DNA of 15,019 nt from Nitrospinota bacterium (GTDB lineage: Bacteria; UBA8248): positions 1-15,019 of the forward strand of contig JAYGFR010000163.1 in the NCBI GenBank assembly GCA_046581755.1, read 5' to 3'. The notes beneath the pieces were generated by a model. It did no database searches, was not told the origin of the DNA, and saw only the letters and a program-made list of their open reading frames with translations. Below, in pieces: positions 2,520 through 14,442 of the stretch (position 1 is the stretch's first letter; each line of letters starts with the position of its first letter). Position numbers and translations under genes: made by a program.

Positions 2520-3629
2520 TTAGGCCCGAATGATTGCGGATACGACGCCGCCCCCGACCGGTCCTTGATGAAACACCAAGCCCGCGGATACGTAGACGGC
2601 CGGATCCTGAACAACGGATGCAATGACGGCGTTCGCCACCGCGCGCACGGGACGGGTACCGAGGACGGAATCCGTGAGCAAGGTCGTCCGCTTCTCGAGG
2701 AGGAGGCCGTCCCACGGCGCTCCGGCCTTCGCGAGCACATGCACTACCCGGTCCAAATCCGCCTGACTCGGCAGCCCATCGAACTGGAGGCCCGCATTTT
2801 TGAGGGCTTGACGGACGCCGTCCGCGTCGATCAGATTCCGAAGCAGGGCGCGTCCAATTTTGTATTTACTCACGGAATTTGCCGCGTTTCCAATGACGAT
2901 GACCTCGGAACGCATGAGCTCGACGCCAGCCGAGCAAGACACCATCTCCGAATATAAATCCCCCCGGGAACACACATCCTCGGGCTTCAAATCGTCCCGG
3001 TCGATTTCACCTAGTCCGACCGCCGCGCCGAGCGCGGAGCATCCGTTCGAAAAGCTCATCGAACGCGTGGTGTCGGTTGAAACCACTTTTTTCCCGCGCG
3101 AAGCCGCATCGTTGATTCGGTCCGAAGTGAGAAGAGGACATTTCACCTGAACGTATCCCACATCATCGAGCGATTCCACGCCCGTTTCTTTGAGGGCGGT
3201 TCCGGCGGCCTCAGCGACAAGATCGATATGTGCCATGGTGCCGATCTCTTCGGGCAAAAGATCGCGCGTGAACCCGAGCCCGATGGTGAGGCGTTTCTCT
3301 CCGGGGCTGGGAGTACCGTCAGGCACTTCTTTTTTGGTGAAGACCACCGCATGAGGGCTCATCACGCCCTCGCAGCCACCCGACATCACCATCGCGCACC
3401 GGGCCTGGACTTCCTCCCGGCTGATGGAGAGGGATTCCATCAAGTAGTCTTCGAACGCGTGGAGCGCATAAGGCCGCGAGAAGTCGTTCACCCGCCCGTT
3501 CCCTTCGGTTTTGGAAATGATGGCTTGGATGTCACCGGCGGCTATCGTTCCATTGTTGACCGCTTCCGCTAGCCCGGAGACATCTTCCGGACCCGCCATC
3601 TGAAATTTTACAATCTCCACATCGATCAT
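2520..3629 (-). CDS. Ring-opening cyclic amide hydrolase, cyanuric acid hydrolase (AtzD/TrzD)/barbiturase family (Toblerone fold)
   Basis: Family motifs KTEGNG.VNDFSR, VMSGGCEGVMSPH, YVQVKCPLLT, SCSAGVEL and VYVS....HQGP.GGG. 369 aa, with a GGAGG RBS upstream. Confidence 0.95.
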   Translation of the reverse strand: MIDVEIVKFQMAGPEDVSGLAEAVNNGTIAAGDIQAIISKTEGNGRVNDFSRPYALHAFEDYLMESLSISREEVQARCAMVMSGGCEGVMSPHAVVFTKKEVPDGTPSPGEKRLTIGLGFTRDLLPEEIGTMAHIDLVAEAAGTALKETGVESLDDVGYVQVKCPLLTSDRINDAASRGKKVVSTDTTRSMSFSNGCSALGAAVGLGEIDRDDLKPEDVCSRGDLYSEMVSCSAGVELMRSEVIVIGNAANSVSKYKIGRALLRNLIDADGVRQALKNAGLQFDGLPSQADLDRVVHVLAKAGAPWDGLLLEKRTTLLTDSVLGTRPVRAVANAVIASVVQDPAVYVSAGLVFHQGPVGGGVVSAIIRA

Positions 3630-3676
3630 GGATTTATTCCTCCAAGTCTCTTTTCATGACTCCAATAAAAGCACGT

Positions 3677-5083
3677 TTATGATCCCGGCATCTGCAGGCC
3701 GGCCCGTCCGGCGACAGCCGTGGATGCGGTCTGTGCTCTTTCCAGTACCTGTTTTTCTTCTTTGGGACTGAGCCACGTCAGCTTCCCATCTTCCATAAGG
3801 GGTTCTCCGTCCACCCAGACCCACTGCACCTCGGAGCCTTGCGATTGGTAAACGAGGCCGGAGGGCAGGTGATGCAGCGGGCGGAGATGGGGGCGGTCCA
3901 GATCGAACAGGATCAAGTCCGCACGCTTGCCGGGCTCGATGACGCCGATCTCGTCATCCATTCCAAGCGCCGCCGCTCCGTTCCGGGTTGCCATGTCGAG
4001 CGCCTGCTGAGCGCTCATGGCGGCCGGATCCGCGTTCACCCCCTTATGAAGAAGACAAGCGAGGCGCATCTCCCAGAACATGTTCGCCATATCGTTGCAG
4101 TTGGCGTTGTCCGTCCCCAGTGCGACTGGAACCCCAGCCATCATCATCCGGGGAACGGGAGCGATTCCGGAGCCGAGATAGAGATTGCTGGAAGGGAGGT
4201 GGACCACCCGGGTGCCGGATTCACGCAAAAGACGGATGTCTTCATCGCCGAGGTGGATGCAGTGCGCTGCGACGAGATCCGGCGAGAGCAGCCCCCAGGC
4301 CGCCAGGTGCTGTACGACAGGCAGACCTCCTACCGTGGATTCCATCGGGTCCTCCGAGACATGGGTGGATACCCGGAGATTCCGCTCCGACGCCCATCCG
4401 GACACCCGCCGGAAAGTTTCCCCTTTCACATAAACGGGGATGTTCGGGCCGGGCCAGATGTGAATCCGTCCGTTCCGCTCTCCGTGATATTTTTCGAAGA
4501 GAAACGTCATCTCCGAAAGAAACGAATCCCCGTCTTTGAGATGAGAAGGAAAATCCCGCGGCCAGGCCGCCGTGAGGGAGCCGGCACGTTCGGCCAGTTT
4601 TCCGGTTGGACCCACTTCGTTGAAGCACAAGACGAAGACGCTTCTCATTCCGCTTTCGATTAGAGCTCCCAGCATGGCCTCCGAAAGCGGACGCTCCACC
4701 CGTTCGTTGGTCACCACGGTGGTGGTGCCCGACCGAATCGCCTCGATGGTGAAGAGCTTGGTCGCCACTGCGGCGTCATCCGGGGTGTAGAAGGCCTGGC
4801 CCGGCGCCATCACATTCAGCCGCCAGTCCATGAGGCGTCGGTCGGCGCTCAGGCCCCCGCGCAGGAGAATGCACATGATGTGACTGTGGGCGTTCACCAG
4901 GCCCGGCAACAGCGCCATCCCCTCGGCATCGATGATCTCGGCGCCACTCTCTTGGACGTCCGCGCGGTCATCCACCCGAGCGATACGGGCATCCTCGATG
5001 AGGACCGATCCCCGCTTGTACACGTCCCGGGCATCGTTCTGCGTGAGGATGTGTGCGTTACGGATGAGGGTTCTGGTCGCCAT
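3677..5083 (-). CDS. Metal-dependent amidohydrolase, TrzA/TriA/AtzA (s-triazine hydrolase) subfamily
   Basis: Metal ligands in NAHSH, THVSED, AAHCIH and GTDN. Subfamily-type segments ILLRGG.S.DR.L.DW..NV..PG, TTVV.NE.V, GRI.IWP.P.IP, HVSEDP.E, GTD.ANCND and a C-terminal L.WL.P.EEK match TrzA/AtzA as recalled. GGAG RBS upstream. Confidence 0.9.
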   Translation of the reverse strand: MATRTLIRNAHILTQNDARDVYKRGSVLIEDARIARVDDRADVQESGAEIIDAEGMALLPGLVNAHSHIMCILLRGGLSADRRLMDWRLNVMAPGQAFYTPDDAAVATKLFTIEAIRSGTTTVVTNERVERPLSEAMLGALIESGMRSVFVLCFNEVGPTGKLAERAGSLTAAWPRDFPSHLKDGDSFLSEMTFLFEKYHGERNGRIHIWPGPNIPVYVKGETFRRVSGWASERNLRVSTHVSEDPMESTVGGLPVVQHLAAWGLLSPDLVAAHCIHLGDEDIRLLRESGTRVVHLPSSNLYLGSGIAPVPRMMMAGVPVALGTDNANCNDMANMFWEMRLACLLHKGVNADPAAMSAQQALDMATRNGAAALGMDDEIGVIEPGKRADLILFDLDRPHLRPLHHLPSGLVYQSQGSEVQWVWVDGEPLMEDGKLTWLSPKEEKQVLERAQTASTAVAGRAGLQMPGS

Positions 5084-5115
5084 TTGGACTATTCTCCGGA
5101 GATGAGATCAAATGC

Positions 5116-5517
5116 TCAAATTTCGATTTCTTCGACCAATTCGGTGTGGCCGTAATCCTCTTTTCCGATGTGCGGAAGGAAAAAACTGATCTGTTTGGAG
5201 TCGCGCTCCCCCTTGTTCGCAACGCTGTGCACGATACCCGCCGGGACGACGAGGGAGTCTCCCGGATGGCAGATTGTTCTCTCTTCTCCCATGATGACGG
5301 ATACCTCTTCTTCCAGGAAATGGATGATTTCGGCGACATCATGATAGTGCGGGAGTACGGCTCCTCCCGGCTCGATTTTCTCGATGAGAACTTTCCAAAT
5401 GCGCAAGCCGATTTTTTCCCATTCCTCTTTCGATAGAATCTCCTTGTGAAAGAGACCCGGATGACGGGGCATCGGTCCCCATTCGAGGTCGTCCCATCTG
5501 AGCAACGTTGGCTTCAT
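5116..5517 (-). CDS. Cupin_2 domain protein (metal-binding)
   Basis: IEPGGAVLPHYHDVAEII...PGDSLVVPAGIVHSVAN contains the cupin motifs HxHxxxE and PxGxxH. Start at ATG 5517 behind GAAGGAGG (133 aa); the longer listed ORF overlaps the M20 gene. Confidence 0.9.
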   Translation of the reverse strand: MKPTLLRWDDLEWGPMPRHPGLFHKEILSKEEWEKIGLRIWKVLIEKIEPGGAVLPHYHDVAEIIHFLEEEVSVIMGEERTICHPGDSLVVPAGIVHSVANKGERDSKQISFFLPHIGKEDYGHTELVEEIEI

Positions 5518-5536
5518 GTCGATAATGCGCCCTCCT

Positions 5537-6715
5537 TCATTGGAGCACCGGCAACCCGAGTACCTTGGCCCCCACCTTCGTGAGGATAACTGCTGTGTCC
5601 CGGATGGCATCAACGCCCATCCACTCGTCCACCGCGTGCGCGCAATTCGTCTCCCCCAAACCCCACACGATTCCGTCGTAGTTTTGAAGCCCCGGTCCGA
5701 GCACAGAAAAATCGGTGAAGGCTTCGTGGCCGTCCTCTCCGCCCCTTTCCAAGGGATTTCCGGTCACATCTTGATAGGTGTCCATTAGGGCGGAGATTAA
5801 AGGAGAATTCTCGTTTGTCTGGTACGGCTCGCGTTCAACACTGAGGGCCTCGATTGTCACCGAGGTACCCGGAACCAGCGCGCACGCACCCTCCGCCGCC
5901 TGGCGGATACGTTCCTTCAGGTCATCGCACGAAAGAGGCGGCACGATTCGGATGTCCATCTCGGCCCGGCAGCTCGGAGGAACCACGTTGGTCTGAAGGC
6001 CTCCCTCCACACGTCCAATTGTAAGCTGGGGGCGCCCCAGTACTGGATGTTCGGTATCGAGATCCACGATGGTAGCCTTTACAGCCCGAATAACCTCCGC
6101 CATGGCGTGATTCGCATCCGCTCCGAGCCATGGCTTTCCCGCATGTGCCATCTTGCCGCTGGTCACTACCTCAAGCCAGAAGGCACCAACATGAGCCGCT
6201 CGGAGCCGCCCTCCCGTGGGCTCCGGGACCACGATCAACGCATGGGGAGGAAGTTTCTTTTCTTTCACCAAGGCCTTCGCCCCGAGCATGGACTTTCCTT
6301 CCTCGTCCATAGTCGTCACGACGAACAAATCTCCCTGGAGAGAGTCTCGATGTTCTGCAAGTTGAGCGGCGGCCGTCATGGCGGCAGCGAGGCCCCCTTT
6401 CATATCGGTGGATCCGCGCCCATAGAGGCGCCCTTCGTGAATTTCCCCCGCTAGTGGGGGGTGACTCCAGCCGTCCCCGGCGGGAACCGTGTCGAGGTGG
6501 GCCAAAAAGACGAGTGGCCGGTGACTTCCATTCCCCGTCATTTTGGCAATGAGGTTTGCCCGGCCCGAGGCGACAGTCTGGACCTCGACCTCAAAATCCC
6601 GTTCGCGGAGCCAGCCTGCGCAAAATCGGGCACACTCTTCCTCCTGCGGTCCGGGATTTTGTGAATCGATCCGAACAAGTTTTTTCGTTAAATCGACAGG
6701 GTCGATAACAGGCAT
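5537..6715 (-). CDS. M20 family metallo-hydrolase (ArgE/DapE-like deacylase)
   Basis: Motifs AHLDTVP, LYGRGSTDMKGG, DEE, GKMAHAG, GG..TNVVP, D.R.VP and AHAVDE. Start taken at MPVIDPVDL (ATG 6715); the start is uncertain. Confidence 0.92.
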   Translation of the reverse strand: MPVIDPVDLTKKLVRIDSQNPGPQEEECARFCAGWLRERDFEVEVQTVASGRANLIAKMTGNGSHRPLVFLAHLDTVPAGDGWSHPPLAGEIHEGRLYGRGSTDMKGGLAAAMTAAAQLAEHRDSLQGDLFVVTTMDEEGKSMLGAKALVKEKKLPPHALIVVPEPTGGRLRAAHVGAFWLEVVTSGKMAHAGKPWLGADANHAMAEVIRAVKATIVDLDTEHPVLGRPQLTIGRVEGGLQTNVVPPSCRAEMDIRIVPPLSCDDLKERIRQAAEGACALVPGTSVTIEALSVEREPYQTNENSPLISALMDTYQDVTGNPLERGGEDGHEAFTDFSVLGPGLQNYDGIVWGLGETNCAHAVDEWMGVDAIRDTAVILTKVGAKVLGLPVLQ

Positions 6716-6862
6716 GGCTTTTCTCAACCAGTCCGAGTCAATATTTTGAAGAGAAACTCTCGAAATTATGCGGATACCGCCGCTCATTCCTGGATTCCGC
6801 ATTATCGGTCCGCGATTCGGCCATAATTTTCAAATGAGGTCCGTCAAAACTAGCAGAAATCG

Positions 6863-7080
6863 CTGTGCTCCGCAATAATTAGGTCTTCTATAAATTTATC
6901 AGTTTTAAAATCTGAAAAAAATCCCATTCAAACAGGAATTTAAGACTCGACCGTGAATTTGGACAGCACGCAATTATCGTATTGGCTATAGGCATGACGC
7001 AAATCATGCCACGACGAGACCCGATTAATTGACCTCGCAAATCATTCATTTTATGAGGGATCTAAATTTGCGAAGCGCAG
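6863..7080. mobile_element. MITE-like element, family A, copy 2 (218 bp)
   Basis: Left end CTGTGCTCCGCAATAATTAGGTC is 20/23 identical to 1406-1428. Right end reverse-complements to CTGCGCTTCGCAAATTTAGATC. The internal GACCTCG..TTCATTTTA..GGG.TCTAA block is shared with copy 1. Confidence 0.7.
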
Positions 7081-7323
7081 GAGTTCTATGATGGGATCCG
7101 GGGAGATATTTTTACACAAAAGAGGATTTTAATGCGAAATTCTCTTATGCGGCATGGAGCGATTATGGAGGGGCAGATCAGTGGCCCAAAGCCTCTCCCT
7201 TCTTCTTAGCCCCCTCCTTTGCTCTGGCGGATCCCATCATGTCTTAGACTCACAACAATGGATGACATAACTATCGGAGCAGGCCATTATCACTAATTTC
7301 CCTTCTCGACGGGATGGTTCTCA

Positions 7324-8202
7324 TTGCTCGAAACCTTGAATCCCAACTTGATGTCCTTCATCGCCGCGATATTCGTAGCGGTTTCCCAGGTGATGTACCG
7401 CCTAGCTTTGAACCGCCTGAGCCCCGCAATCACGACCCTGATGCTGAATCTCATCTCCGCGATCCTCGCGATTGGGCTCTATGCGATCGGGGAAGGGGTA
7501 AGAACCTGGCCCCTGGCCGCCCTGTTCTGGTTTGTCCTGGTCGGCGTGTTCGGCAACTCGGTGGGCCGCTACCTGAGCCTTCTGGGTGTGAACCTTATTG
7601 GACTCTCGCGGACTCAGGTATTGTTGCAAACCGTCCTGATTTGGTCTTCCCTCCAAGGCATATTTTTCCTCGGAGAGCAGATGACAGTGGGGATTGCCGT
7701 CGGCACTCTGGCTATTATGTGCGGCGCCATCCTCCTCCTCTACGACCGACGGACTGATGAGGTGAGCACCCCCCTCCGGTATTACTTCGTTCCCGTGTTC
7801 GCCTCCTTTCTCTTATCATTGACATTTGTATTCAGAAAGTTTGGGCTCGTCATGCTCCCCTCAACCTCGATGGGGATCGCCGTGTCCACCGGCTCGGCGG
7901 CCCTGCTTTTGGCCGCCATCATTCCCTTTGACAAAAAAGGCGGTACCAGGCGCTGGGATCCCCGAGGCCTGTTCACCGTGTCCCTTGGGACAGTTTCCAA
8001 CTTCGTTGCCGCAATCTTCTTCTGGTCCGCTGTCCAACGGGGAGAAGTTGTGCAGGTGATCCCCATCAACCGCTTGTCGATCCTTTTAGTGATCTTTCTC
8101 TCCTGGTTCTTCATGCAGAAGCAGGAGGCTGTCACTTGGCGCATCGCCTTGGGCGGCGCTTTCTCGGTTGTGGGTGCATTTGCGGTGGTGTGGGGGAAGT
8201 GA
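7324..8202 (+). CDS. EamA/DMT family transporter
   Basis: About 290 aa with ~10 hydrophobic segments in two EamA repeats (..IFFLGEQ..; GEVVQVIPINRLS.LLV..LS.FF..KQE.VT). Start is TTG 7324 or ATG 7351. Confidence 0.9.
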   Translation: MLETLNPNLMSFIAAIFVAVSQVMYRLALNRLSPAITTLMLNLISAILAIGLYAIGEGVRTWPLAALFWFVLVGVFGNSVGRYLSLLGVNLIGLSRTQVLLQTVLIWSSLQGIFFLGEQMTVGIAVGTLAIMCGAILLLYDRRTDEVSTPLRYYFVPVFASFLLSLTFVFRKFGLVMLPSTSMGIAVSTGSAALLLAAIIPFDKKGGTRRWDPRGLFTVSLGTVSNFVAAIFFWSAVQRGEVVQVIPINRLSILLVIFLSWFFMQKQEAVTWRIALGGAFSVVGAFAVVWGK

Positions 8203-8631: not shown

Positions 8632-10665
8632 ATGGCCGAATCTTCGTCTCGTCCGCTTGATCTCATCATGCTCGAAGTCTTGAACGAATCCTTCGTGGCG
8701 ATCGTTCGCGAGATGCGCGCCAGCATGGTGCGGACGGCCTATTCCTCGATCATATACGAAGGCCACGATTTTTCGTGCGCTCTGGTGGACGGCCGGGGAC
8801 AACTCGTCGCCATGGCCGAGGACAATCCGGTCCACATTTTCCCGATCCCGATAGAGGTGGGGGAGATGTTGGTGCGGTTCGAGGGGGATATTCATCCGGG
8901 CGATGTTTTTCTCCACAACGATCCCTACACGGGCGGAACCCACCTGAACGACGTGGCCATGATCTCCCCGCTGTTCGACGGCGGGGAGATGACCATCTAT
9001 CCCGTCGTGCGTGCCCATTGGGGGGACGTCGGCGGGACAACGCCGGGGAGCATTTCGGGAAAGAACACCGAGATATTCCACGACGGAATTCGGATTCCTC
9101 TCCTGAAGGTTATCGAGCGCGGGAAGTTGAATCGGGCCGTCACGGATCTTCTCTTTCACAACATGCGGGTTCCGGACGAACGGCGGGGCGATTTTTTCGC
9201 CATGCTGGCGACATGCCACACGGCCCACCAAAGGCTCGGGGAACTGGCGGCTCAATACGATTGGGCCACCCTCATCCAGGCCAAGGAGAGTCTGCTCGAT
9301 CGATCGGAAGCCCCGATGCGCCGCCGCATCAAGGCGGTCCCGGACGGCGAATACGTATTCGAGCATTTCATGGATCATGCGGGCCATTCGCTCGACCCGC
9401 TACGAATCCGGGTCCGGGTGGCGGTTTCTGGCGACGGACTTCGGATAGATTTCAGCGGAACGGACCCGCAGGTGCGGGGAGCCTACAATGTGGGCCCGGC
9501 CATGGCACCCTCGGCTTCGTTTGCCGTCATCAAAGCCTTTCTGGACCCCCATTCTCCCATCAACCATGGCGCTTTCCGCCCTCTCGAGATCGTGACCGAG
9601 CCGGGCTCGCTCCTCTCCGCCCGCTATCCGGCCAGCTGCGCCGGATCGATGGAGGTCAGCCATGCCGTGGTCACGGCGCTGATCGGGGCCGCCGGGCAAA
9701 TGGCGCCGGATGCCGTGACGGGCGACCTCAAGGGGACCTCGAACCATTTCTATATCGGGGGAAACGATCCCCGCACGGGCGAGGCCTTTTTGTTTTATGA
9801 ATATCCCGCAGGGGGAACGGGGGGCTTCGCCGAAGAAGATGGGAACAATGCCACGCGAAATTTCACCGAAGGCGATTTCTCCTCGATCCAATCGATCGAG
9901 GTCATAGAGCATGCCTATCCTCTTCAGATCAAAAGCCTCGAATTGCGCCGGGATTCTGGCGGGCCGGGATTTCGCCGGGGCGGACTCGGCCTCCGGCGTG
10001 TGGTCGCAGTTTTGGCCGGGGATGCTCTGTTGTCCATTTCCTCGGATAAAAACATCATTCCGCCATTCGGGGTGTTTGGAGGAGGCCCCGGCAGCCCGAA
10101 CCGGTTCACCGTGCTGCGGGAGGATCGGACTCTCATGCCTTCGGATACTCCGGGGAAAGTGGCCGGTTTCCGGCTCGGACGGGGGGACCGCGTAGTGATA
10201 GAGACATCGGGAGGCGGAGGCTATGGCGATCCACTCGAGAGGGAGCCCGAGCGGGTTGCGGCCGACGTTCGCGAAGGCTACGTCTCGCCCGATGAGGCAA
10301 GGGGCGAATATGGCGTGCATCTAACAGGCGAGGAAGTGGACGAGGAGAAAACCCGCGCATGCCGCCAGGCCATGAAAGATGCCCGGCGAAGCCTTCCCCT
10401 GATTCAGGCGGAAACGCACCGGGCCAGAGGGTCGAGACGTTTGTGTTCCATCGGGCCGGATACCGCAGCCGATTTGGGACTCGAAGCCGGCGCTCTCGTT
10501 GAGTTGAAAGGCCGTCCCTGCGCTCCTTTAAGAGCGTGGATCGAGATTGTCCAGGGCCATCCCGAGGGACAGTTGGGGTTGGATGCACTGGGGATGGCCA
10601 TCCTTCAAGGGGGTTTCGGCGGCAGCGCCGCAATCCGGCTCCTTTCGGGAGGTGTAGGCGGTTGA
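8632..10665 (+). CDS. hyuB: Hydantoinase B/oxoprolinase family subunit with C-terminal extra domain
   Basis: RTAYSSIIYEGHDFSCAL, PGDVFLHNDPYTGGTHLND, AHWGDVGG..PGS, IDFSGTDPQV.G..N, EVIE..YP, DSGGPG..RGGLG and TSGGGGYGDPLER. GAGGAG RBS upstream. Confidence 0.95.
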   Translation: MAESSSRPLDLIMLEVLNESFVAIVREMRASMVRTAYSSIIYEGHDFSCALVDGRGQLVAMAEDNPVHIFPIPIEVGEMLVRFEGDIHPGDVFLHNDPYTGGTHLNDVAMISPLFDGGEMTIYPVVRAHWGDVGGTTPGSISGKNTEIFHDGIRIPLLKVIERGKLNRAVTDLLFHNMRVPDERRGDFFAMLATCHTAHQRLGELAAQYDWATLIQAKESLLDRSEAPMRRRIKAVPDGEYVFEHFMDHAGHSLDPLRIRVRVAVSGDGLRIDFSGTDPQVRGAYNVGPAMAPSASFAVIKAFLDPHSPINHGAFRPLEIVTEPGSLLSARYPASCAGSMEVSHAVVTALIGAAGQMAPDAVTGDLKGTSNHFYIGGNDPRTGEAFLFYEYPAGGTGGFAEEDGNNATRNFTEGDFSSIQSIEVIEHAYPLQIKSLELRRDSGGPGFRRGGLGLRRVVAVLAGDALLSISSDKNIIPPFGVFGGGPGSPNRFTVLREDRTLMPSDTPGKVAGFRLGRGDRVVIETSGGGGYGDPLEREPERVAADVREGYVSPDEARGEYGVHLTGEEVDEEKTRACRQAMKDARRSLPLIQAETHRARGSRRLCSIGPDTAADLGLEAGALVELKGRPCAPLRAWIEIVQGHPEGQLGLDALGMAILQGGFGGSAAIRLLSGGVGG

Positions 10666-10726
10666 GCGGCCTGCGCCGGATTCGGCCTGGTTTCGTGTCG
10701 CCTTTTCACCGGAGGATATCGGTCCA

Positions 10727-12787
10727 TTGCGCCTGGTAGGTGTGGATATCGGAGGAACGTTTACCGACCTGGTCTTCTATGACGAAGACAAGGGAACCAT
10801 GGAGGTGGCCAAGCTGCCCTCCCAGCGCGGGAGGGAGACGGATGTCGTGCTCGATGCCCTCGATGGCCTGGATCTGGAAGCCGCCTCGATCGGCCGGATC
10901 ACCCACGGAACCACGGTGGGCACCAACACCCTGCTTGAGAAAACCGGTGCACGGACCGCGCTATTGACCACGCGCGGGTTTCGCGATGTCCTTGAAATCG
11001 GCCGCACCCAGCGCCTGGTGCCCAAGAGTTTATTCGACTCGAAATTTGTCCGGCCCAGGCCACTGGTTCCCCGCGGGCGCCGTCTGGAGGTCGAGGAGCG
11101 CACCCTGGCCGACGGAAGCGTTCAACAGCCCGTGCGCGCCGAGGAGATCGCCGCTCTGGCGGAGCGCCTCAAGGAGATGGAAATTGAGGCCGTCGCCGTA
11201 TGTTATTTGCACTCCTATGCCGATGGGGGCAATGAGCTGCGAACGGCCGAACTTCTCCTCCAGGCGATGCCCGAATTGTATGTCTCCCTTTCCCATCAAG
11301 TGGTACCCGAATACAAGGAGTTCGAGCGCTTCTCCACGGCGGCCATCAACTCTTTTATTGGACCGAAAATCCGAGGCTACCTCGGCGCCCTGGAGGATCG
11401 GTTAAAGGATGCAGGCTACCGGGCGCCCCTTTTCGTGATGGCGTCGAGCGGCGGCATGATCGATGCGGGCAGCGCGGTCGCCTTTCCCGTCCAGACTATT
11501 CTTTCCGGGCCCGCGGGCGGGGTAGTCGGAAGCACGGCTCTGGCCCGGAAACTCGGGCTCGATCACTTGATTACCTACGACATGGGCGGGACCAGCACGG
11601 ATGTGTGCCTGGTCCGGGACGGCCAACCCGTCGTCGCTCGGGAAAACACTGTCGGTCGCCTACCGCTAAAAACGTCTCAGATTCAAATCAACACGGTCGG
11701 CGCGGGCGGGGGGAGCATCGCCTGGCGGGACGAGGACGGCGCCCTTCATGTCGGACCCAGGAGCGCGGGCTCACACCCCGGCCCCGCCTGTTACGGGCAG
11801 GGAGGAAGCGAGCCCACCGTCACGGACGCCAACTTGGCGCTTTTGCGCCTGGGCAGAGGCACGTTGCTTGCTGGGCAGATGCCGCTCCAGCCGGAACTTG
11901 CCGAAAAATCCCTGGCCCTCCTGGCTGAAAGTACGGGGATCGGGGATACCGCCGCGATGGCCCGGGGAATCATCGACATCGCCGTGGCGAAGATGGTGAG
12001 TTCGGTCCGGGAAATTTCTGTCGAGCGGGGTTTCGACCCGCGGGAGCATACCTTGGTGGCCTACGGTGGTGCGGGCCCGCTTCACGCCGCCCTGATTGCC
12101 GAGCGGCTCTCGATGGAGCGGATCGTCGTTCCCATGTATCCGGGAAACTTCTCGGCCGTCGGACTGCTTATGGCGGACCCCACCTTCAACAGCGTGAGGA
12201 CCCATTTCGTTCGCATGGAAGATGCGCGTGCGGATGCGCTGGATGCCGTTTTCGAGGAGCTTGCCTCGGCCCCCGCCGCCCGGCTCCGGGATGCCGGGTT
12301 CGAGGAGGTGCGACGCTTCCGGTCGGTGGACATTCGCTACGTGGGCCAGGCGTTTGAGCTCACTATCCCGGCGGGAGAGGGCCTGGGCTGGCTCGAAGTG
12401 TTGGCGGCGGATTTTCACCGCCTCTACGAAGCGCGCTACGGCCACTGCCACCCGGATGAGCCGACCGAAATCGTTCATCTTCGGATGCGCGTTGCGGGGG
12501 AGGTGGAAAAGGCGCGCTGGCTGGACCGCCCGGACGGTGAAAGGACGCTGGAAGGCGCCCTGATCGAGGAGCGCAGCGTTCATTTTCGGGAACGGTTTTT
12601 CGCCTGTCCCATCTACGCGAGAGATCGCCTTCCCGCCGGCCAGCCTTTTTCGGGGCCAGCGGTTATCGAAGAGTACGGCTCGGCCACCCTCGTTCCGCCG
12701 GAGTGGAAAGCGAGCCAGGACGCCGAGGGCCATCTGCATCTGGTTCGGGCGGAGGCGCCGCCGGCGTCTAGCGGCCCCGGGGAGTAG
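10727..12787 (+). CDS. hyuA: Hydantoinase A/oxoprolinase family ATP-binding subunit
   Basis: GVDIGGTFTD, HGTTVGTN.LLE, TTRGFRD.LEI, EFERFST...N, SGPAGGV, DMGGTSTDV, TVGAGGGSIA, GP.SAGS.PGPACYG.GG..PTVTDAN and GGAGPLHA. TTG start behind GGAGG (10711-10715). Confidence 0.95.
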   Translation: MRLVGVDIGGTFTDLVFYDEDKGTMEVAKLPSQRGRETDVVLDALDGLDLEAASIGRITHGTTVGTNTLLEKTGARTALLTTRGFRDVLEIGRTQRLVPKSLFDSKFVRPRPLVPRGRRLEVEERTLADGSVQQPVRAEEIAALAERLKEMEIEAVAVCYLHSYADGGNELRTAELLLQAMPELYVSLSHQVVPEYKEFERFSTAAINSFIGPKIRGYLGALEDRLKDAGYRAPLFVMASSGGMIDAGSAVAFPVQTILSGPAGGVVGSTALARKLGLDHLITYDMGGTSTDVCLVRDGQPVVARENTVGRLPLKTSQIQINTVGAGGGSIAWRDEDGALHVGPRSAGSHPGPACYGQGGSEPTVTDANLALLRLGRGTLLAGQMPLQPELAEKSLALLAESTGIGDTAAMARGIIDIAVAKMVSSVREISVERGFDPREHTLVAYGGAGPLHAALIAERLSMERIVVPMYPGNFSAVGLLMADPTFNSVRTHFVRMEDARADALDAVFEELASAPAARLRDAGFEEVRRFRSVDIRYVGQAFELTIPAGEGLGWLEVLAADFHRLYEARYGHCHPDEPTEIVHLRMRVAGEVEKARWLDRPDGERTLEGALIEERSVHFRERFFACPIYARDRLPAGQPFSGPAVIEEYGSATLVPPEWKASQDAEGHLHLVRAEAPPASSGPGE

Positions 12788-12795
12788 GAGCGCCA

Positions 12796-14442
12796 ATGCC
12801 GGAACCCACCGGGCTCTTGGATACTTTCGTTCGCGATCATCTTCCGCCGGAGGCGCTCCTGCCGGAAATGGATTATTCATCCCTTCCCGCGCTGGCCGTC
12901 TATCCTTCCCGCCTCAACGCGGGGGCCGAGCTTCTCGACAAGCCGGCCCGGGGAGAGTTCGCCGCGCGGCCCGCGATTCATTTCGAAGGGGAGGTTTGGA
13001 CCTACGCCGAACTTCTGGACAAGGCCAACCGCATCGCCTCGGCGTTGACCGGGGACCTCGGGCTCGTTCCCGGGGGGAGGGTGCTCCTCCGGTCGGCCAA
13101 TCATCCGCTCATGGTGGCGTGTTGCCTGGGGGTATGGAAAGCGGGCGGGATCGTGATTCCCACCATGCCCGTATTGAGAGAGCGCGAGCTGGTTTACGTG
13201 ATGGAAAAAGCCCGGGTCCAGTTCGCCGTCTCGGACGCGCGCTTGGCCGGGGACATTCAGCGGGCCGGGGAAAAGGCGCCTTCGCTCCAAAGGATTCTGT
13301 ATTTCGGCGATGGCGGCGGGGATGGATTAGAGGCCCTCATGGAGGCGAGCTCGGATACGTTCGAGAATGCGGACACCTCCTCCGCCGATCCTGCCCTCAT
13401 CGGGTTCACCTCGGGCTCGACGGGAACTCCCAAGGGAACGGTCCATCTCCACAAGGATTTGCTGGCCGTGGCGGACACCTTCGCCGGCGGTTTGCTGGAC
13501 ATCGGCCCCGGCGACATCGTTTGCGGCAGCCCGCAAATCGCTTTTTTGTACGGTCTTTGCGCATTCATTCCCGACACCTTGCGGTTCGGGGCCTCGGCCG
13601 TATTGCTTGAGCGGGGAACGCCGGAGGCCTTGCTGAAAGCCATTGAGCGCCACGGCGCCACCGTTTGCTTTAGCACGCCGTCGGGATACACCCAAATGCT
13701 CGAAAAAGCCTCGGACCACGACCTGAAAAGCCTGCGGGTGTGCGTTGCCGGGGGAGAGCCGCTTGCCCCCGGGGTCTTTCAAGCCTGGAAGAATGAGACC
13801 GGGGTGGAAATCATCAACGGGCTGGGAATATCCGAGCTGCTGCATATTTTCATTTCAGCAAAAGGCGGGGACATCCGGCCCGGCGCTATCGGAAAGGAAA
13901 TTCCCGGGTACCGGGTCCGGGTGGTGGACGGGGAAATGAACGATACGGCTCCGGGCGAGATCGGCCAGATGATCGTCAAGGGTCCCACGGGCTGCCGGTA
14001 TCTGGACGATCTGGATCGCCAGAAAAAATATGTACAGGATGGCTGGAACATGACGGGAGACCTTTGCCGCACCGATGAGGACGGCTATATCTACTACGAG
14101 GCGCGCATGGACGACATGATCAATACGGGCGGCTACAACGTCTCGGGGCTCGATGTGGAGTCGGTTCTGATTGAGCATCCTAAGGTCCGGGAATGCGCCG
14201 TGGTCGGATCGCCCGACAAGCTGCGGGGCCAGATCGTCAAGGCGTTTGTCGTACTGGCTGGAGAGGCGGAGGCGACCGGGGAGACCGCCGCTGAACTGCA
14301 GGATTTCGTGAAATCCCAGATCGCCGCCTATAAATACCCGCGTGCGGTGGAGTTCGTTGAAAGTCTGCCCCTTACTCCCACAGGAAAAATCCGGAGGGGC
14401 GCCCTTCGGAACCTCGAGATCGATCGGAATGCTTTACCTTAA
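12796..14442 (+). CDS. AMP-binding aryl-CoA ligase, 2-aminobenzoate-CoA ligase (AbmG)-like
   Basis: Adenylation motifs FTSGSTGTPKG, NGLGISE, TGD, R.DDMI..GGYNVS..DVE and LPLTPTGKI. The N-terminal DTFVRDHLPP and YP.RLNA..ELLD, plus GPTGCRYL..RQ..YV..GWN.TGD, are typical of the AbmG-like subgroup. Confidence 0.88.
   Translation: MPEPTGLLDTFVRDHLPPEALLPEMDYSSLPALAVYPSRLNAGAELLDKPARGEFAARPAIHFEGEVWTYAELLDKANRIASALTGDLGLVPGGRVLLRSANHPLMVACCLGVWKAGGIVIPTMPVLRERELVYVMEKARVQFAVSDARLAGDIQRAGEKAPSLQRILYFGDGGGDGLEALMEASSDTFENADTSSADPALIGFTSGSTGTPKGTVHLHKDLLAVADTFAGGLLDIGPGDIVCGSPQIAFLYGLCAFIPDTLRFGASAVLLERGTPEALLKAIERHGATVCFSTPSGYTQMLEKASDHDLKSLRVCVAGGEPLAPGVFQAWKNETGVEIINGLGISELLHIFISAKGGDIRPGAIGKEIPGYRVRVVDGEMNDTAPGEIGQMIVKGPTGCRYLDDLDRQKKYVQDGWNMTGDLCRTDEDGYIYYEARMDDMINTGGYNVSGLDVESVLIEHPKVRECAVVGSPDKLRGQIVKAFVVLAGEAEATGETAAELQDFVKSQIAAYKYPRAVEFVESLPLTPTGKIRRGALRNLEIDRNALP

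Follow-up and report, generated by a model that had tools for sequence, protein, structure and literature searches.

Locus and gene content

The stretch analyzed here, contig JAYGFR010000163.1 of a Nitrospinota bacterium (assembly GCA_046581755.1), is 15,019 nucleotides long and is called the window in what follows; it is contig C57 of a 4.2 Mb genome that is 96.5% complete. We focus on four genes on its minus strand, two of which form a conserved pair of predicted hydrolases. In the order in which they are read, the four genes are:

5537..6715, minus strand: M20 hydrolase of the ArgE/DapE type, 392 amino acids, accessory; motifs HLD, DMK, DEE and EPT and the C-terminal His are present
5116..5517, minus strand: single-domain cupin, 133 amino acids, accessory; PF07883, with the His/Glu metal-type motif HYH..E..H
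3677..5083, minus strand: metal-dependent amidohydrolase of the AtzA/TriA clade, 468 amino acids, core gene 1; PF01979
2520..3629, minus strand: Toblerone-fold cyclic amide hydrolase (ring-opener), 369 amino acids, core gene 2; PF09663

The first-pass annotation of this DNA described four co-oriented genes with small gaps, and this description holds: neighboring genes are separated by 19, 32 and 47 bp, with purine-rich stretches 5' of the four gene starts. For the M20 gene, an alternative upstream ATG is possible at 6802. The guanine-cytosine (GC) content of the four genes is 52-62%, near the genome mean of 60%, and is lower in the flanks. All four genes are under purifying selection, with a ratio of nonsynonymous to synonymous substitution (dN/dS) of 0.07-0.11 for each gene against a metagenome-contig relative that is 88-90% identical. 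A scan for promoters and terminators stays at the level of chance (4 and 7 sites, with 3.1 and 8.6 expected), and an Rfam scan gives no match at E 0.1.

Sequence near-identical to the cassette is present in seawater RNA libraries. Short RNA contigs (151-347 nt, mostly at least 99% alike) map in all four genes and also in intergenic DNA, and no RNA contig bridges two of the four genes (4 of the 12 listed RNA runs). Because of the intergenic matches and the lack of bridging contigs, these data do not establish expression or co-transcription.

Conservation of the gene pair

The conserved unit consists of two genes only, the amidohydrolase and the ring-opener. In a search for orthologues in all 51 genomes of the phylum, this genome included, the amidohydrolase is found in 24 genomes (66-78% identity) and the ring-opener in 25 (77-84%). 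The ring-opener lies downstream of the amidohydrolase on the same strand in every one of the 24 amidohydrolase carriers; by match coordinates, the two are separated by 51-130 bp in 23 of them, and a methyltransferase gene is inserted in the remaining one. The carriers are 21 of the 23 genomes of genus g8, both genomes of genus g7, and this genome, and the cassette is not found in any of the four other genomes of this genome's own genus. Divergence within the lineage covers 66-89% identity, with a synonymous divergence (dS) above 1 to the neighboring genus. Similarly, all four metagenome loci that contain a ring-opener of this type also carry the amidohydrolase. Among 401 genomes of another phylum, eight have amidohydrolase matches of 31-39%, for which membership of the AtzA clade is not established, and no ring-opener lies within ~1.5 kb of them. 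Literature searches confined to open-licence papers gave no description of this pair or its signature.

The chromosomal surroundings of the pair differ among carriers. At the 21 g8 loci, the pair follows a divergent RidA gene, and in 20 of them a different, convergent cupin gene lies downstream. The pair thus occupies different chromosomal backbones: this genome has the orthologues of these RidA and cupin genes on another of its contigs, with ~1.2 kb between them. The genes that flank the pair in g8 (RidA, a flavin adenine dinucleotide (FAD) oxidoreductase and the second cupin) were considered as parts of the module and rejected, as they look like backbone. The proposal that substituent hydrolysis is followed by ring opening is thus supported, because the two hydrolase genes are together in 24 of 24 genomes across several settings.

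The M20 and cupin genes as optional additions

The M20 and cupin genes are optional add-ons to the pair. The M20 protein matches PF01546 and TIGR01910 (225.7 bits for the latter, cut-off 217.6), and falls below every equivalog cut-off shown in the NCBIfam-type profile scan. The other 50 genomes of the phylum yield no M20 orthologue; their best match, at 39%, is like a paralogue that is also present in this genome. The cupin orthologue is not found in the 21 g8 genomes that carry the pair. On these two results, the idea of a self-contained four-gene pathway is not supported. As for co-conservation of the four genes in other genomes, it holds for the pair (24 of 24) and fails for the full set, which was found in only two of 63 metagenome loci, one from the same species and one 88-90% identical.

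Nevertheless, the four-gene order predates this genome but decays from its 5' end: genome G010 has, at two loci, a C-terminal remnant of the M20 gene (55-63%) ahead of the cupin, and genome G014 has a remnant of the cupin ahead of the pair, both genomes being from a neighboring genus. In G010, the cassette of M20 remnant, cupin and amidohydrolase is recently duplicated (L229/L068, L032/L070, L231). Behind one copy, no more than 19 codons of the ring-opener remain; in the copy beside the intact ring-opener, pocket residues of the amidohydrolase are changed (C71F, N328A); and the cupin is present a third time at another place in the genome.

The link between the cupin and ring opening is uncertain, because its homologues occur in mixed contexts. 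Those of ~50% identity are directly upstream of canonical atzD in five of five genomes of another family. Within this family, five genomes have homologues next to PALP or metallo-beta-lactamase genes, and three of these five lack a Toblerone gene. The ESM Atlas returns only generic Cupin_2 clusters for this protein.

The ring-opener

The ring-opener matches PF09663 over its full length (421.6 bits, residues 6-368). It shares with AtzD/TrzD (Groups I-III of the Toblerone enzymes) the fold, the three Ser-Lys dyads and Arg52 (K40, R52, S83, K163, S233, K301 and S348 are all intact), as well as T320 and R324 in AtzD numbering, and it is 44% identical to AtzD; its best PDB match is the Moorella enzyme. 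However, it differs from them in R194N, G344A and E347F, in the absence of Glu at position 297 (Gly in its place), in a one-residue insertion in the metal loop, and in forming a separate clade. Its signature N195-T325-R329-A349-G350 corresponds to N194-T320-R324-A344-G345 of AtzD.

The description of the Toblerone groups in PMC3758960 is based on five specificity positions (195, 321, 325, 345 and 346 in the numbering of that paper). These are Arg-Thr-Arg-Gly-Gly in cyanuric acid hydrolases and Asn-His-Lys-Val-Ser/Ala in barbiturases (Asn at AtzD position 194 and Val at 344, also by our alignment); Group IV has Arg-Met/Thr-Arg-Thr-Arg, and Group V has no residue at 195 and Gly, Arg or Trp at 321. 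The Asn-Thr-Arg-Ala-Gly of the window protein fits none of the six groups as described there, where Groups IV and V were compared by description. In particular, the protein lacks the cyanuric acid hydrolase signature and the loop SGGAEHQGP with its metal-binding Glu, having SAGLVFHQGP instead (SAGLVFHQ versus SGGAEHQ in the core of the loop). Like the barbiturase Bar (Group VI), it has Asn194, no Glu347, a residue other than Gly at 344 and SCS at the central serine. In contrast to Bar, it has Thr and Arg rather than His and Lys at 320 and 324, Ala rather than Val at 344, and Gly at 345, so that Asn is all that it shares with the barbiturase signature; its score against Bar is also lower, and the known oxidative pyrimidine genes are not beside it. 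The Frankia chain 5hy0 ranks last of seven for this protein.

Published structures and mutants indicate where these changes lie. In the Moorella structures, as presented in PMC6557486, there is one Arg bound to each ring carbonyl; Glu351 holds Arg193 (AtzD 194), and the residue that faces the carbon of barbiturate is Gly348. The lost Arg is thus the one that binds a carbonyl, the lost Glu the one that holds this Arg, and the next Gly the one that faces the carbon, and so the specificity changes are concentrated in a single corner of the three-fold site. For the enzyme of Azorhizobium, the kinetic results in PMC4051656 show that the mutations R188K and R188Q lower cyanurate activity 5,000- and 23,000-fold.

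Asn194 is widespread: among the 120 best database matches, 100 have it (13 of this lineage, 86 with the loop SAG[W/M/L][G/S][Y/F]HQ and one truncated), and the other 20 are canonical. In a tree calculated with FastTree from 67 of 166 rows, with no bootstrap and no outgroup, the Asn194 proteins are on one side of a branch, apart from the canonical enzymes (Shimodaira-Hasegawa-like (SH-like) support 98), and the window lineage is nested among them (100). The ring-opener passes the NCBIfam NF052395 cut-off for cyanuric acid amidohydrolase (413.1 bits, cut-off 360). Note that a protein of the sister branch also passes it, so this model does not separate the types.

The 63 metagenome loci comprise 44 of the sister type, four of the window type, three canonical ones and 12 that are unclassifiable. 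The 44 sister loci contain genes similar to AtzH (24), AtzE (6), M20 proteins like allantoate amidohydrolase (4), proteins like 8-oxoguanine deaminase (5) and a molybdoenzyme (5, near-copies); since many of the contigs are short, these counts are lower bounds. An AtzA-clade gene is present at none of the 44. The sister group (L134-L196), which is labeled cyanuric acid amidohydrolase in the databases, also occurs with TctC, NMT1/THI5 and creatininase genes, and its ring-openers are candidate parabanate or barbiturate hydrolases. The structure model in this family is that of a sister-branch protein (P0044), not of the window protein, and confirms the fold only. Genome G038 (L051:8444-9571) holds another divergent Toblerone type, with an Asn-Ile-Lys signature, Gln for the third Lys and the loop SGAFGTMP; this gene adjoins genes for an iron alcohol dehydrogenase, an M24 peptidase and a trimethylamine methyltransferase.

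The amidohydrolase

Both in the PDB (321.6 bits, 37% identity; the next match has 206 bits) and in fold, the amidohydrolase has its best match in AtzA, with a template modeling (TM) score of 0.97 for an AlphaFold model whose predicted local distance difference test (pLDDT) value is 94.9. TrzA is not among the nine plasmid matches or the PDB match list for this protein. The five metal ligands (H66, H68, H241, H274 and D325) and E244, the counterpart of Glu246 of AtzA, are intact when compared with the residues listed for AtzA in PMC4356373, as expected of the mononuclear His4-Asp site of AtzA and TriA. The pocket, however, is different: C71, L84, M85, R88, R128, N326 and C329 versus Q71, F84, Y85, L88, D128, N328 and S331 in AtzA. 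At the positions that separate AtzA from TriA, the protein has Leu84/Asn328/Cys331 in AtzA numbering, which is neither the AtzA trio (Phe84/Asn328/Ser331) nor the TriA trio (Leu84/Asp328/Cys331), the latter differing in the residue at 328. Its dyad is accordingly Asn/Cys, versus Asn/Ser in AtzA and Asp/Cys in TriA. Arg88 and Arg128 are present in all 24 genome loci examined, and among the 48 AtzA-clade rows of the tree described below they occur only in the seven rows of the window lineage.

Mutants with related residues are reported in the sections on kinetics of PMC3387218. TriA D328N, which has the same Leu84/Asn328/Cys331, is below detection on atrazine, melamine and ametryn, and AtzA S331C (Phe/Asn/Cys) gives 3,200 on atrazine, 127 on ametryn and 50 on melamine, in units of per M per s (Table 1 of that paper). 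Coming from other protein backgrounds, these results are only suggestive for the window enzyme.

In a FastTree calculation on 101 amidohydrolases, again with no bootstrap and no outgroup, the protein is placed inside the AtzA/TriA clade (48 rows, SH-like support 100). AtzA and TriA themselves are within an 11-row clade together with environmental proteins up to 48% identical, and Asp328 is found in 29 of the 32 rows of that part of the tree. The window lineage forms a separate long branch that is not sister to AtzA/TriA and has a remodeled pocket, which makes the enzyme a cousin of AtzA and not an ancestor. The suggestion that the locus may show the ancestral context of AtzA/TriA is therefore not supported: the gene belongs to a derived side branch, and other environmental proteins are nearer to AtzA.

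Predicted function of the pair

Judged from their sequences, the two proteins belong to their parent families but lack the residue signatures of the cyanuric acid hydrolases, the barbiturases, AtzA and TriA. The reading that we favor, with a probability of roughly 0.45, is that the pair strips one substituent from an acidic six-membered nitrogen ring, gives a barbiturate-like trione, and opens it to an acylurea as a source of nitrogen. The substrate would tentatively be a barbiturate-like pyrimidine with an amine or a similar leaving group, and the pair may represent a route, not described before, by which marine bacteria catabolize a natural nitrogen heterocycle, a proposal that we rate at slightly less than even odds.

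In the first step, a metal-activated water would replace the ring substituent, and Cys329 would protonate the leaving group (NH2, SH/SR or OR; a halide would also be possible with Asn326). Arg88 and Arg128, in place of the Leu and Asp/Glu of TriA-type enzymes, would bind oxo or carboxylate groups of the ring. In the second step, Ser233-Lys163 would attack a ring carbonyl and open the ring to an acylurea. The changes R194N, E347F and G344A and the one-residue insertion are predicted to lie at sites C and C', where C5 of barbiturate is located, so that the ring would probably have a carbon, not NH, at that position. A third step is weakly suggested, in which M20, or unlinked amidases where M20 is absent, would cleave the acylurea, with the cupin in an accessory role. 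By chemical reasoning, examples of substrates would be 2-amino-4,6-dihydroxypyrimidine, 6-aminouracil, 2-thiobarbiturate and 5-substituted analogues.

The sister loci also bear on this reading. In its favor, five of the 44 have a different neighbor, like 8-oxoguanine deaminase, and 24 have AtzH-like genes. Several points weigh against it. The sister branch is accompanied by purine-ureide genes (allantoate-type M20 at 4/44, AtzE at 6/44), which fits oxalurate chemistry equally well. The ring-opener scores 354 bits with cyanuric acid hydrolases, to which it is closer, and 262 bits with barbiturase, and it keeps the cyanurate-type T320/R324 rather than the His/Lys of barbiturase. In genome G005, which is 87% complete, the ring-opener lies 653 bp from the end of its contig; no amidohydrolase is found in this genome, and there is no trace of it beside the ring-opener. 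The 24 carriers are not independent, since they are kin from three genera, with 21 from one. Finally, AtzH is found in none of the 51 genomes of the phylum, which leaves the downstream step unaccounted for in most pair carriers, and no natural seawater source was identified for the proposed aminopyrimidines.

Among the alternatives, the one that survives best, although still unlikely, is that the pair salvages products of oxidized purines with a five-membered or non-symmetric ring. A parabanate-type ring would be opened to oxalurate, and the amidohydrolase would deaminate an imino-imidazolidinedione or an amino-triazine carboxylate. The neighbors of the sister branch point this way, namely AtzH/HpxZ ('oxalurate catabolism protein'), AtzE, allantoate-amidohydrolase-like M20, 8-oxoguanine-deaminase-like and creatininase genes; the window lineage, however, has none of them and has a distinct loop (LVF versus WG[YF]). 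Parabanic and oxaluric acids are proposed as products of oxidized guanine in the relevant part of PMC12623156, and R88/R128 would suit an anionic substrate. In addition, the genome carries homologues of FdrA, DUF1116 and carbamate kinase, a set described as oxamic transcarbamylase (PMC11326118), but in relatives the carbamate kinase and FdrA genes adjoin canonical atzD instead. The absence of AtzH from the 51 genomes also argues against this alternative.

A triazine-herbicide or melamine route, in which melamine, ammelide or a chlorotriazine is converted to cyanurate and then biuret, is less probable still. It is favored by the ring-opener score (413 versus 360 bits for the cyanuric acid amidohydrolase cut-off), by AtzA being the best match of the amidohydrolase in sequence and fold, by the partial activity on atrazine, ametryn and melamine that AtzA S331C keeps with the same Asn/Cys dyad (PMC3387218), and by the nine of 20 pair carriers examined that have no other AtzD. 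Nevertheless, it appears unlikely because of the hybrid signature of the ring-opener and the Leu84/Asn328/Cys331 combination: loss of the residue replaced at Arg194 costs 5,000-23,000-fold on cyanurate in the enzyme treated in PMC4051656, and the TriA mutant with the same trio (D328N; PMC3387218) is the one below detection on all three compounds. Moreover, canonical AtzD is also present in the other 11 of these 20 carriers, this genome included, and the divergence of the lineage (see above) suggests an age far greater than that of industrial triazines. The specificity residues thus speak against melamine, chlorotriazines or cyanurate, which the first-pass annotation had listed as possible substrates.

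Another improbable explanation is that the four genes encode scavenging enzymes which are loosely clustered on a mobile cassette and do not share an intermediate. The loss or decay of M20 and cupin in relatives would agree with it, as would the unrelated neighbors of cupin homologues (PALP and metallo-beta-lactamase genes) in genomes that have no Toblerone gene, the lack of the cassette in the four other genomes of the genus, and the abundance of amidases and cyclases in this genome; but gain and loss of the two hydrolases go together (24 of 25 carriers), and the two remain together across relocations and have both had their pockets changed in a lineage-specific way. It is similarly improbable that the amidohydrolase is a natural dehalogenase or desulfurase that feeds the ring-opener from a halogenated or thio marine pyrimidine (e.g., 6-halouracil), since a halide would have no need of the proton donor Cys331 (PMC3387218) and no natural pyrimidine of this kind was identified, although Asn328 is the AtzA (halide) state where the neighboring clade has Asp in 29 of 32 rows, the Asn/Cys dyad in AtzA favors chloride over amine ~60-fold in the kinetic data of the same paper, and near-identical sequence occurs in the seawater RNA libraries.

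Relation to known pathways

The order of AtzA followed by AtzD has the same working logic as the window pair. The window amidohydrolase, however, is part of a stable chromosomal pair, whereas atzA and triA are plasmid genes flanked by insertion sequences (IS), and no atzG, atzE, atzH or atzF of the atzDGEHF cyanurate operon is beside the ring-opener among the window open reading frames (ORFs) scanned. A loose likeness exists to the reductive urate pathway SsnA-HyuA-YgeY outlined in PMC12507026, where, too, an enzyme of the amidohydrolase superfamily and a ring-opener are combined with ureide cleavage by an M20 enzyme. However, the window amidohydrolase (P0003) scores far below the SsnA cut-off and the M20 protein (P0001) below that of YgeY, there are no reductases beside the window genes, and the ring-opener is a Toblerone enzyme, not a hydantoinase.

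If the favored prediction is true, the pair would be the first case in which gene context gives a lead to a natural substrate in the AtzA/TriA clade. The old progenitor of AtzA/TriA is described as not clarified in the section concerned of PMC7615792; tying a member of the clade to a ring-opener makes this question testable with a small two-enzyme panel. It would also be the first function for the large Asn194/Arg324 Toblerone group, at a time when the natural substrates of most Toblerone enzymes remain to be found. Because the Asn194 group is automatically labeled 'cyanuric acid amidohydrolase', surveys that read triazine degradation from these genes would then be wrong.

Other triazine-type genes

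Scanning of 10 window ORFs gives no match to the AtzE, BiuH or AtzF families, which agrees with the earlier statement that no biuret/carboxybiuret or allophanate hydrolase occurs in the window. Other contigs of the same genome carry a canonical AtzD (C116) and AtzF (48%); the genome also has a TrzC-like gene (35%) and nine loci that resemble AtzE at 34-43%. In the canonical cyanurate module (C116 (L227), C106, C257, C385, C169; L224, L225, L228, L230), atzD occurs with a BMP-type ATP-binding cassette (ABC) transporter. In relatives, carbamate kinase is within ~1.3 kb of canonical atzD with FdrA/DUF1116 nearby, as on the Klebsiella trzD plasmid, and this module may route biuret via a transcarbamylase to carbamoyl phosphate and ATP.

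The earlier statement that atzA and atzD are unlinked is correct for pADP-1, where only an amidase fragment follows atzA; a melamine-type plasmid, however, has triA ~11 kb from trzD. On this Klebsiella plasmid (NZ_CP084773.1; L133:1141-6896), triA, which carries eight of the nine TriA substitutions, is followed by an amidase, a gene of unknown function, a nucleoside deaminase and a truncated ring-opener beside IS91. Linkage of the two families is therefore not unique to the window, and this gene order may preserve a trace of the locus from which triA/atzA came.

Remaining features of the window

The plus strand (8632-14442) encodes a hydantoinase B with a C-terminal extension, a hydantoinase A and a benzoate-CoA-ligase-like gene, and the window also carries genes for an EamA transporter (7324-8202) and an M24 creatinase-like protein (269-1402). 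All of these were considered as parts of the module and rejected, since none of the 20 loci from relatives has them next to the pair. Bases 1-18 of the contig resemble what we take to be an Illumina adapter, and the same 18-base string ends or starts eight of 400 contigs of the assembly; ORFs that run from base 1 are artefacts. The intergenic flanks (1400-2450 and 6860-7085) hold non-coding repeats that are also on many other contigs (70-89% identity), and one repeat piece (~2175-2445) is also found directly upstream of canonical atzD on C116 (84%).

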